From IMG/VR virus record IMGVR_UViG_3300031951_000561: a stretch of DNA of 36,924 nt; one strand, given 5' to 3'. Below the pieces are notes generated by a model, which worked only from the letters and a program-made list of their open reading frames with translations, was not told the origin of the DNA and ran no database searches. Shown here piece by piece: positions 35,545 to 36,738 of this stretch; positions within the stretch are counted from its first letter, which is position 1; every line of letters begins with the position of its first letter. The position numbers and the translations under genes are program-made. Origin of the DNA: a virus.

Positions 35545-35924
35545 ATATCGATGATTTAATTAAATTAGCGCAGTTACTACAGCCATCAAAAGGCGATCAA
35601 ACGGATGGAAAGCTGCCTCTAGGAAATCAATTTATTGGCAAGTACGTTATTGTGCGTAGCCGCAACGAGGGCATCAATGCCGGGAAAGTACTCGAGCTAG
35701 ACCATACGGGTGTGATTTTGGAGGATGCGCGGAGGCTTTATTATCACAAGCCAGCCAACAAAGAATTGAGCTGGTACGAAGGTGTTGCGCTTGAGGGGCT
35801 GTCTAAGGATTCAAAAGTTGGTGCTGAAGTAACGAAGCTCATTGTTGAAGATTACTCCATTACTGTTTGCACTAAAGAGGCCGAAAAATCCATTCGCGGA
35901 GCAAAAACCAATGCCCAAAGTTAA
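35541..35924 (+). CDS. hypothetical protein (127 aa)
   Basis: ORF track with ATGA coupling. Its last 32 nt belong to the duplicated unit. Confidence 0.65.
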   Translation: MNIDDLIKLAQLLQPSKGDQTDGKLPLGNQFIGKYVIVRSRNEGINAGKVLELDHTGVILEDARRLYYHKPANKELSWYEGVALEGLSKDSKVGAEVTKLIVEDYSITVCTKEAEKSIRGAKTNAQS

Positions 35925-36207
35925 ATTGAAATCGTTGAGCGTAATTAGCGGCTCCGGCGACGGCTCCGGCTCCGGCTCCGGCTACGGCTACGGCAACGGC
36001 TACGGCTCCGGCGACGGCTACGGCAACGGCAACGGCTCCGGCGACGGCTCCGGCTCCGGCGACGGCTACGGCTCCGGCGACGGCTACGGCTACGGCAACG
36101 GCAACGGTTCCGGCTCCGGCTCCGGCTACGGCTACGGCAACGGCAACGGCAACGGCAACGGCGACGGCTCCGGCTCCGGCTCCGGCTCCGGCTCCGGCTC
36201 CGGCTAA
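35911..36207 (+). CDS. (X-Gly)43 repeat protein, copy 1 (98 aa)
   Basis: GGAG lies 9 nt before the ATG. MPKVKLKSLSVI is followed by strict alternation of S/D/Y/N with Gly. Ends with TAATAG double stops. Confidence 0.65.
   Translation: MPKVKLKSLSVISGSGDGSGSGSGYGYGNGYGSGDGYGNGNGSGDGSGSGDGYGSGDGYGYGNGNGSGSGSGYGYGNGNGNGNGDGSGSGSGSGSGSG
35947..36204 (+). repeat. hexanucleotide array (NNCGGC)43
   Basis: Units are TCCGGC, GACGGC, TACGGC and AACGGC only, plus a leading AGCGGC. One GGT variant at 36106-36108. Confidence 0.95.
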
Positions 36208-36219
36208 TAGAGGATATTT

Positions 36220-36354
36220 ATGGCCATATCAAAAGTGCTTAAGGTATCGCTTGGCTGCGCTGTAGGCGTGCTGGGCGTATTATTCACAGTCGAGGCAGCG
36301 CGTGATTTGATCGGTGCGCTAGAGGACAAAGCAAGAATGGGGAGGGTGAGGTGA
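36220..36354 (+). CDS. 44-aa single-pass membrane protein, copy 1
   Basis: MAISKVLKVSLGCAVGVLGVLFTVEAARDLIGALEDKARMGRVR. GAGGA lies 5 nt upstream. Its TGA overlaps the next GTG. Confidence 0.6.
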   Translation: MAISKVLKVSLGCAVGVLGVLFTVEAARDLIGALEDKARMGRVR

Positions 36355-36425
36355 GCGACAAAATAGAACTAATTATGAAAGACTTTGATTTTATTCGCGG
36401 AGCAAAAACCAATGCCCAAAGTTAA
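36351..36425 (+). CDS. chimeric junction mini-ORF (24 aa): first 14 codons of gene 85-348 fused in frame to the last 10 codons of gene 35541-35924
   Basis: MSDKIELIMKDFDF|IRGAKTNAQS. The junction lies at 36393/36394. Confidence 0.45.
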   Translation: MSDKIELIMKDFDFIRGAKTNAQS

Positions 36426-36738
36426 ATTGAAATCGTTGAGCGTAATTAGCGGCTCCGGCGACGGCTCCGGCTCCGGCTCCGGCTACGGCTACGGCTCCGG
36501 CTACGGCTCCGGCGACGGCTACGGCAACGGCAACGGCTCCGGCTACGGCTCCGGCTACGGCTCCGGCGACGGCTACGGCAACGGCAACGGCTCCGGCGAC
36601 GGCTCCGGCTCCGGCGACGGCTACGGCTCCGGCGACGGCTACGGCTACGGCTACGGCAACGGTTCCGGCTCCGGCTCCGGCTACGGCTACGGCAACGGCA
36701 ACGGCAACGGCAACGGCGACGGCTCCGGCTCCGGCTAA
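36412..36738 (+). CDS. (X-Gly)48 repeat protein, copy 2 (108 aa)
   Basis: Same N-terminus and SD as copy 1, with a longer array. Confidence 0.65.
   Translation: MPKVKLKSLSVISGSGDGSGSGSGYGYGSGYGSGDGYGNGNGSGYGSGYGSGDGYGNGNGSGDGSGSGDGYGSGDGYGYGYGNGSGSGSGYGYGNGNGNGNGDGSGSG
36448..36735 (+). repeat. hexanucleotide array (NNCGGC)48
   Basis: Same unit set as copy 1. The GGT variant sits at 36661-36663. Confidence 0.95.

Follow-up and report, generated by a model that had tools for sequence, protein, structure and literature searches.

The stretch of viral DNA examined here, IMG/VR record IMGVR_UViG_3300031951_000561 (36,924 nucleotides, one strand, 5′ to 3′; hereafter the window), carries close to its 3′ end a gene whose protein consists, beyond a short leader, of glycine at every second position and one of four residues (X) in between. 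This array gene is present in two copies, and gene neighborhoods across many phages indicate that it is the second gene of a conserved two-gene cassette, with a gene of the DUF6948 (PF22253) family as its near-obligate partner. The overlapping upstream DUF6948 gene is the key piece of context missing from an earlier account of the same DNA made from its letters and open reading frames (ORFs), here called the sequence-only reading. The features of the cassette are as follows.

35541–35924, plus strand: DUF6948 (PF22253) gene, 127 amino acids, a Pfam hit; its last 14 nt overlap the start of the array gene.
35902–35913, plus strand: GGAG Shine-Dalgarno sequence, 9-nt spacing and ATG of array gene copy 1, read from the sequence; the GGAG lies within the ...RGA... 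codons of DUF6948.
35911–36207, plus strand: array gene copy 1, 98 amino acids, composed of the 12-residue leader MPKVKLKSLSVI and 43 X-Gly units; TAA (36205–36207) is followed by TAG.
35947–36204, plus strand: NNCGGC hexanucleotide array of copy 1, 43 units, period 6 by TRF.
36403–36414, plus strand: matching Shine-Dalgarno sequence, spacing and ATG of copy 2, read from the sequence.
36412–36738, plus strand: array gene copy 2, 108 amino acids, composed of the leader MPKVKLKSLSVI and 48 X-Gly units; the array occupies 36448–36735.

The perfect array of 43 and 48 dipeptides that the sequence-only reading had described can be read directly from the DNA: in both copies X is exclusively Ser, Tyr, Asn, or Asp, and the repeat units run without interruption. 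Its account of the near-invariant codons, the upstream GGAG, and the TAATAG that closes each gene was likewise confirmed in both copies, the array being written in TCC, TAC, AAC, and GAC codons paired with GGC, apart from a single AGC and a single GGT in each copy. Across the whole genome (the window is 49% GC) the corresponding codon shares are 48% for GGC, 11% for TCC, 45% for TAC, 53% for AAC, and 36% for GAC; measured against this usage, the codon uniformity of the arrays given their residues has a log10 P of about −40 in copy 1 and −43.5 in copy 2. No tRNA genes that might supply the favored codons were detected in the phage. The codons for Tyr, Asn, Asp, and His make up the queuosine-decoded NAC set, and the residue set of the array coincides with the single-step neighbors of the codon TAC; this line was dropped because arrays in NAT codons exist.

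At the protein level, the period is strictly two residues (6 nt) and there is no hydrophobic U position. Collagen-like and polyglycine-II repeats place Gly at every third residue (G-X-Y), and the RTX beta-roll nonapeptide reads GGXGXDXUX; the strict period of two thus rules out collagen-like sequences, polyglycine-II sequences such as those of T-even gp38 and the snow-flea antifreeze protein, and the RTX beta-roll. The array protein has a net charge of −3 to −4 and contains nine G-Y-G motifs in copy 1 and 13 in copy 2, which place it among the [G/S]Y[G/S] low-complexity sequences, a FUS-type resemblance that denotes a compositional class and implies no homology. No Pfam, PHROG, or NCBIfam family matches it, in keeping with the sequence-only reading, which had recognized no described family.

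Because the array is open in five of its six frames, openness as such is no evidence of coding. The Gly-X frame alone possesses a start, and a stop exactly where the array finishes. Stronger evidence comes from relatives. Array loci were sampled by strict DNA patterns, and the percentages given here and below hold for that sample, which is no census. When IMG/VR was scanned for runs of 12 NNCGGC units, at least 120 contigs were returned, nearly all of which read as a short N-terminus followed by (Gly-[S/Y/D/N])n. Among 155 NNCGGC arrays comprising 3808 units, X is Tyr in 36.6%, Asp in 25.9%, Ser in 22.7%, and Asn in 10.1%, together about 95%, while the other 11 of the 15 residues that NNC can encode sum to about 5% (Ala, 0.4%). 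A control scan demanding Gly codons other than GGC recovered arrays with the same residue set, each codon-uniform internally: all-GGT (L134, L189, L212, and L231), all-GGG (L151, L187, L181, and L193), and all-GGA (L161). The same exchange is seen among orthologous cassettes whose DUF6948 proteins are 63–81% identical, where the array of L252 is written in GGG with TCC/GAC/TAC, and those of L253 and L254 in GGC with TCT/GAT/TAT. Such a switch alters every alternative frame while the Gly-X residues stay, and in all three the array ATG again lies 14 nt before the DUF6948 stop. Because orthologues swap codon sets yet retain the residues, the Gly-X frame is the one that appears to be selected; the comparison argues that this ORF is a genuine protein-coding gene whose composition is selected at the protein level, as the sequence-only reading had supposed. 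The test that it had offered, a search for indels that are not multiples of three, proved non-discriminating, since slippage in 6-nt units is always in frame. The GGG, GGT, GGA, and NNT arrays also rule out NNCGGC as a required DNA motif, and the codon uniformity within each array would instead reflect repeat turnover.

Evidence for such turnover is found within a single phage population. The same phage is represented by about two dozen metagenome contigs of 36.0–37.2 kb from several JGI and ENA samples, and in these near-identical genomes the number of array units is 15, 39 (in two variants), 43, 48, or 52. Around the variable arrays, roughly 6 kb on either side are 99.6–100% identical, and the leader, the TAATAG, and the downstream ORF are unchanged. 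The alleles differ mainly by insertion or deletion of whole units, and single-copy genomes vary as well. Presumably, the tract changes length in 6-nt units by replication slippage or unequal recombination, and it is because it grows and shrinks in this manner that its codons are homogenized and its length hypervariable. Mutagenesis by a diversity-generating retroelement (DGR), turning AAC into NNC, was ruled out: such systems couple a reverse transcriptase to a template repeat and confine variation to template adenines, while here the variation consists of unit indels and no reverse transcriptase is found among the Pfam hits of the window. Elsewhere in the window, a 377-residue tail-region protein (10547–11680, minus strand) has an Mtd_N domain (E = 6.3e-9), the N-terminal domain of the DGR target protein of Bordetella phage, and a potentially length-variable trinucleotide repeat, (GAA)9.7, lies at 29726–29754 inside a DUF1376-like ORF (29455–30180, minus strand). 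Contigs frequently end at or within the array (L252, L253, L254, and many IMG/VR loci), so that short-read assemblies break there and databases probably contain too few arrays.

These observations bear on the proposition that the tract is a selectively neutral hexanucleotide microsatellite whose frame happens to be open, or else a motif with a role of its own as DNA or RNA, and that its peptide has no function. Such a tract would be expected to use a single codon per residue with essentially invariant third positions, to leave five of six frames open, to vary in length (here 3.5-fold), and to break contigs, all of which is observed. However, NNCGGC, NNTGGC, NNCGGG, NNTGGT, and NNTGGA arrays encode the same residues, even among orthologues; just four of 15 possible residues are common at X; the positions of the ATG, Shine-Dalgarno sequence, and stop are conserved; an array stands behind 94% of the sampled DUF6948 genes; and no Rfam family reaches its gathering score anywhere in the window. 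We therefore regard a purely DNA- or RNA-level explanation as highly improbable.

The association with DUF6948 emerged when the window's proteins were compared by phmmer with all ORFs of 240 pattern-derived loci: DUF6948 recurred in 35 loci, SSB in 13, and every other non-array gene in at most five. In 33 of the 35, the DUF6948 homologue is the immediate upstream neighbor and shares the strand, its stop lying 0–40 nt before the array. With an iterated profile, whose hits proved on inspection to be free of low-complexity sequence and to align over the domain core, a DUF6948-type gene directly precedes the array in 82 of the 104 loci with enough upstream sequence (~79%). The reciprocal comparison, for which loci were drawn from IMG/VR and GTDB genomes by DUF6948 peptides alone and blind to arrays, found an array ORF 1–109 nt after the DUF6948 stop in 49 of the 52 loci with downstream room (94%). 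In the cassette, the array gene opens with an ATG that either overlaps or adjoins the DUF6948 terminus. The window's DUF6948 protein scores 52.1 bits against a Pfam cutoff of 27, with residues 33–118 covering model positions 1–85 of 85, and each of the 735 DUF6948 homologues collected is tagged PF22253; a narrow DUF6948 profile by itself yields 588 clusters at 50% identity. One of the three array-less loci, L310 from an Anaerolineales metagenome-assembled genome (MAG), has as its next ORF downstream of position 4343 a reading frame that starts MALALAMA...; it looks like an array in another frame and may be a frameshifted or degraded one.

The two genes also vary together. Leader and tail type follow the DUF6948 subfamily: all five partners bearing the motif "DRGWIFAGD" sit before "M..RPV-array-VS..RR" proteins, the "YIVRCDRAGVFFG" partners sit before "M.LDEKIKAFLSVS-array-155-aa domain" proteins, and the subfamily found in the window pairs with leaders of the form M-x-K-[VI]-[KRS]-[DS]-[LI]-x-[FI]..G. 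More broadly, the leaders of relatives diverge widely and are often only 2–8 residues long, with MNKVKDLFFNG, MSKVRDLEINKG, MEKIG, and MTY among them. In two cases (P0036 and L023), DUF6948 and the array are fused in frame, and at various other loci the array is joined at its N- or C-terminus to globular, cytoplasmic-looking domains. The N-terminal modules comprise a DUF7666 domain and a domain of ~60 residues ("DDVIRAGAC..GV"); the C-terminal ones comprise a domain of ~110 residues that is weakly DUF7666-like and one of ~155 residues that recurs after the array in ~15 loci (L098, L051, L065, L114, L161, and others) and carries the Cys/His-containing motif ...PCY.VK...FAHGET...DWHHRLTGSC.MGR...ELTKDAYGG.VIRK. 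Neither of these C-terminal domains has a Pfam, PHROG, or NCBIfam family; for them, the array protein, and the 44- and 87-residue ORFs described below, there was only sub-threshold noise (such as TrAA12, DUF5678, and weak DUF7666). Judged from such architectures, the array in fusion proteins behaves like a linker or tail module.

Megablast against GenBank phages returned no close DNA relative of the window. The cassette is present in three cultured phages. In Iodobacter phage PhiPLPE (NC_011142, L311), a 270-nt gap in the RefSeq annotation after gp84, a DUF6948 homologue, hides an unannotated array ORF (about 1170–1412 of the L311 locus) that begins MSRLVNNKNGDGSGYG..., runs for ~35 NNCGGC units, and ends in two stop codons. 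The homologue in Ralstonia phage NK-7 (XCO36015) is labeled "fibroin heavy chain-like protein" in GenBank, and Vibrio phage IKEMa6-1 carries the cassette without annotation. Titles of the MAGs that provided GTDB hits name Pelagibacterales, Pseudomonadota, Caldilineaceae, Thermosynechococcus, Flavobacteriaceae, and Anaerolineales, although the binning of phage contigs is unreliable as a guide to the host. In some phages, short array genes sharing one leader are repeated many times in tandem, with at least six "MNIKISRG..." genes in GGT/NNT codons with additional Trp and Arg in L134 (843–1985), and at least three "MLKIKNIYSFGYG..." genes on the minus strand of L147 (~13,530 to 14,350 of a 14,600-nt locus). 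Within the searchable full-text literature, neither DUF6948 nor DUF7666 is named in any paper and no cassette of this sort is described; searches on Gly-rich, dipeptide, or hypervariable phage repeats, on Sm-like proteins with glycine-rich regions, and on "fibroin heavy chain" yielded nothing on it. The cassette is widespread in phages and not previously characterized, and no family model covers the array proteins.

Structure prediction offers a view of both partners. The AlphaFold2 model of the DUF6948 protein (mean predicted local distance difference test score, pLDDT, 89; predicted template modeling score 0.74) is ordered as a helix, three long strands, an inserted helix, two strands, and a final helix, the strands forming a bent beta-sheet. 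In the Sm fold, an N-terminal helix precedes a five-stranded antiparallel sheet that is strongly bent, and in a Foldseek comparison with the PDB nearly all of the top 50 matches of the model are Sm or LSm proteins, the best being archaeal SmAP1 (1i8f; template modeling score 0.74–0.79 normalized to the target, root-mean-square deviation 2.0 Å over ~86 columns). A viral structure library returned only unnamed DUF6948 proteins. The predicted DUF6948 fold can accordingly be called Sm-like as a statement about fold and not about family membership: Pfam finds DUF6948 alone in the partner gene, and no Sm1/Sm2 sequence motif is detectable in it by sequence or profile comparison. In the array protein, the prediction has a pLDDT of 39 and no secondary structure, with leader residues 1–10 reaching 72, and the tract is predicted to be disordered. 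Two further proposals of the sequence-only reading, a FUS-like low-complexity domain and a flexible acidic spacer, remain compatible with these models because of the pLDDT of 39, the tolerated range of 15 to 52 units, and the linker position of arrays in fusions.

The same data speak to the name that the NK-7 homologue carries in GenBank. A silk-like structural protein, its Gly-X repeat assembling into beta-sheet fibrils that provide a structural or adhesive material, perhaps on the virion, would share its dipeptide periodicity with fibroin. However, the label rests on composition only, the prediction shows no strands, X is mainly Tyr, Asp, and Asn as opposed to the Ala and Ser of fibroin, and the gene is never found among virion genes, so that a silk-like role appears very unlikely.

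We tentatively favor, with close to an even chance of its being correct, an explanation in which the cassette encodes an Sm-like DUF6948 scaffold carrying multivalent low-complexity tails. The two genes would be translationally coupled and produced in matched amounts, and the array leader would dock the tail onto an oligomeric DUF6948 scaffold, a non-covalent equivalent of the in-frame DUF6948-array fusions of other phages. The resulting particle would bear several flexible Tyr/Asp/Ser/Asn-Gly tails and act in early infection on nucleic acids (RNA or single-stranded DNA) or their handlers, whether by chaperoning or by seeding a multivalent assembly or condensate; any domain located C-terminal to the array would be tethered by it. 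A more ambitious version, which we consider possible but rather doubtful, is that of a hitherto unrecognized two-part machine in the phages of many bacterial lineages, in which a DUF6948 ring of Sm-like fold recruits, through the leader, a low-complexity (Gly-Tyr/Ser/Asp/Asn)n tail that has its own gene and evolves rapidly in length, and thereby forms a condensate-like or multivalent assembly on RNA or single-stranded DNA early in infection, or else constitutes a new class of counter-defense. Prokaryotic viruses would then possess a counterpart of the Sm/LSm proteins that bear dipeptide-repeat tails.

Several observations weigh against a scaffold with docked tails. Translation, binding, and oligomerization of the cassette proteins are proposed from sequence and models. 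Three of the 52 DUF6948 loci have no array, and some 20% of the arrays, themselves gathered by strict patterns, have no detectable DUF6948 neighbor. The co-variation of leaders with DUF6948 subfamilies could arise from co-inheritance of adjacent genes and not from contact. The Foldseek E-values are weak (0.016–0.08, none at or below 0.001), and small beta-barrels are easily mismatched in fold comparisons. In searches of all PDB sequences by phmmer and profile hmmsearch, no Sm, LSm, or Hfq chain was recovered, the matches being at chance level, such as pentatricopeptide repeats and RpoF. Finally, a prediction made on a single low-complexity sequence is weak evidence of disorder.

The genomic setting is shared by this explanation and its main rival. 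The window represents a complete genome of an HK97-type tailed phage, in which the cassette comes after Erf, SSB, and a NinB-like gene. At the other loci, Pfam analysis of 150 upstream and 147 downstream neighbor ORFs identified Cro/CI-type helix-turn-helix proteins, DNA methylases, NinG, DnaB, Sak, ERF, RecT, YqaJ, SSB, Lar, Mom, Acb3, HNH, and integrase, and no virion proteins. Cassettes are located in the early region, amid recombination and anti-restriction genes, in agreement with the early, non-structural position given by the sequence-only reading. A 432-residue ORF (28160–29458, minus strand), which runs opposite to the Erf/SSB/NinB/DUF6948 operon and adjoins the DUF1376 gene, encodes a DnaB-like replicative helicase by Pfam, which rules out its identification as a terminase.

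Amid such neighbors, the cassette could be an early accessory module neutralizing an immune or stress factor of the host. Its disordered tail, acidic and aromatic, would serve as a decoy or sponge, for instance as a nucleic-acid mimic or a pseudo-substrate, and the length variation of the tail would be either a side effect of an arms race or a response to it. The net negative charge, the extreme polymorphism within one phage population, the tandem multi-copy array genes of several phages (L134, L147, and others), and the proximity of Lar, DNA methylases, Mom, a homologue of the anti-CBASS protein Acb3, and a dGTP diphosphohydrolase N-terminal domain are all consistent with this notion. Yet there is no link to any specific defense system (no search was made of the PADLOC library, whose entries are defense and not anti-defense proteins), known sponges and DNA mimics are folded proteins, and a change in length leaves the type of sequence the same and so affords no escape from specific recognition. 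Although we judge counter-defense of this kind rather unlikely, it is the main rival, and it is compatible with the scaffold explanation, the two not being exclusive.

The second copy of the array gene belongs to a tandem duplication that adjoins the contig junction, and the remaining features of the region are best understood in relation to it.

36220–36354, plus strand: 44-residue hydrophobic ORF, copy 1, a putative small membrane protein restricted to this phage lineage.
36351–36425, plus strand: chimeric 24-codon ORF made by the duplication, joining the N-terminus of the 87-residue gene (VSDKIELIMKDFDF) to the C-terminus of DUF6948 (IRGAKTNAQS).
36751–36885, plus strand: 44-residue hydrophobic ORF, copy 2, identical to copy 1.
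36798–36924, no strand: terminal 127 nt, identical to window positions 1–127, the overlap of a circular contig.
36882 to the end, continuing as window positions 85–348: 87-residue gene spanning the circular junction.

Window positions 1–127 are thus identical to 36798–36924, and equally to 36267–36393, and the window is therefore a complete phage genome, circular or circularly permuted, of ~36.8 kb, or ~36.3 kb if single-copy. The tandem units, 35893–36393 (501 bp) and 36394–36924 (531 bp), each comprise 32 nt from the end of the DUF6948 gene, the array gene, the 44-residue ORF, and 43 nt from the start of the next gene, and the duplication junction near 36393/36394 displays only the microhomology TCGCG. 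Six other contigs of the phage have a single-copy continuation with no junction, and one further sister contig ends short of it and is uninformative. Of the two copies announced by the sequence-only reading, both are present, as parts of a duplication that is polymorphic, most sister genomes having one.

An assembly artefact, in which the assembler walked through two population alleles at the circular junction, would explain why the duplication is placed exactly at the contig ends, why copy 2 is identical to the single-copy allele of ENA assembly ERZ27247995, and why sister contigs are mostly single-copy. Against it, the junction GATTTTA|TTCGCGGAGC is absent from single-copy genomes and recurs in two other independent assemblies of different samples (L244 and L250), its 5-nt microhomology is far below any assembler k-mer, and tandem multi-copy array genes are common among other phages. 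Because the junction recurs in L244 and L250, and a k-mer artefact needs identity far in excess of 5 nt, the duplication is taken to be real, though polymorphic and not fixed in the phage, and an artefactual origin seems quite improbable. Elsewhere in the window, two neighboring early ORFs (596–970 and another from ~973) have 39-nt starts (596–634 and 973–1011) that are 87% identical and encode MTNEQLKDLLARA and MTNDELKELLARA, which suggests either a pair of small paralogues in tandem or a shared N-terminal motif.

The 44-residue ORF had figured in the sequence-only reading as an immunity-like partner of an exported, Gly-rich bacteriocin or microcin, whose 12- to 15-residue leader of the double-glycine type would be cleaved by a C39 ABC exporter of the host. 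Double-glycine leaders have hydrophobic residues at −4, −7, and −12, an acidic residue at −8, and GG, GA, or GS at −2/−1. In this phage and in L252, hydrophobic residues do fall at −4, −7, −10, and −12 counted from a G-S or G-D site, in loose resemblance to such leaders, and the array of this lineage is indeed followed by a small hydrophobic ORF. However, the acidic −8 residue is missing, the leaders of orthologues and relatives differ in length and pattern, neither a C39 peptidase nor an ABC exporter occurs among the Pfam hits of the window, arrays are often fused to intracellular-looking domains on either side, DUF6948 included, and the conserved partner is predicted to be a cytoplasmic-type Sm-like protein. 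A transmembrane-like ORF follows the array in only ~5 of 108 loci, which rules it out as a conserved cassette partner, and neither the 44- nor the 87-residue ORF matches a Pfam, PHROG, or NCBIfam family. Of the features whose retention the sequence-only reading had proposed to check, homologues keep the frame but neither the leader nor the downstream membrane gene, and the bacteriocin proposal is left barely credible.

If the scaffold explanation is true, the cassette would represent a compact and widespread viral scaffold, folded and oligomeric, with a detachable and tunable low-complexity tail, a design that to our knowledge is familiar mainly from eukaryotic ribonucleoprotein biology. It would add to the few known instances of low-complexity sequence with a defined role, whether in bacteria or in their viruses. 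DUF6948 gains its first functional handle in a near-obligate partner. There are practical consequences as well: the array gene is routinely missed or mislabeled, as in PhiPLPE and NK-7, and it breaks metagenome assemblies and creates spurious or real duplications at contig ends. The cassette is found in three cultured phages, and these questions are therefore directly testable.

Parallels with known systems help to place the cassette. As in bacterial contingency loci and variable-number tandem repeats, a slippage-prone repeat renders one gene far more variable than its surroundings, but a 6-nt unit never switches the gene off and modulates tail length alone. Precursors of class II bacteriocins and microcins likewise join a short N-terminal peptide to a Gly-rich core and, in this lineage only, a hydrophobic ORF lies downstream; the cassette differs in its unconserved leader and immunity-like ORF, the lack of an exporter in the window, and the fusions to globular domains. 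With the GAGAGS/GAGAGY repeats of silk fibroin it shares Gly at every second residue, homogenized repeat codons, and length polymorphism by unequal recombination, whereas X is Tyr/Asp/Ser/Asn and not mostly Ala, no beta structure is predicted, the crystalline repeat of fibroin is absent, and the protein is intracellular, early, and tiny.

Closer likenesses are found among nucleic-acid-binding proteins. Plant glycine-rich RNA-binding proteins combine an RNA recognition motif with a Gly/Tyr-rich region (PMC4117745). As in these proteins and the low-complexity domains of the FUS family, Tyr in the array is spaced by Gly/Ser, disorder is predicted, and the tract is coupled to what is modeled as a domain of nucleic-acid-binding type, making all of them candidates for multivalent weak interactions; the array differs in being perfectly dipeptide-periodic, devoid of Gln, Pro, and Arg, rich in Asp and Asn, and much shorter. 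The function of Hfq, a prokaryotic Sm-like protein, is modulated by a flexible tail, its disordered C-terminal domain, and its C-terminal extensions in Acinetobacter and Moraxella are glycine-rich. If the model of DUF6948 is correct, the cassette similarly pairs a prokaryotic Sm-like protein with a flexible tail that is partly acidic or Gly-rich, but no Hfq sequence signature was found in DUF6948, and its tail is of different composition, strictly of period two, separately encoded, and located in a phage early region. In eukaryotic SmB/B′, SmD1, SmD3, and LSm4, an Sm core is followed by a C-terminal Arg-Gly dipeptide-repeat tail, an interaction and assembly module outside the fold. The predicted cassette resembles them in combining an Sm-type core with a tail that alternates Gly with one residue class. 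It departs from them in that DUF6948 has no detectable sequence homology to Sm/LSm proteins and possesses in its model an extra helix-containing insertion between strands 3 and 4, and in that its tail is built from Ser, Tyr, Asp, and Asn and not Arg, is neutral to acidic, and is usually encoded by a separate, overlapping gene and not in the same chain.

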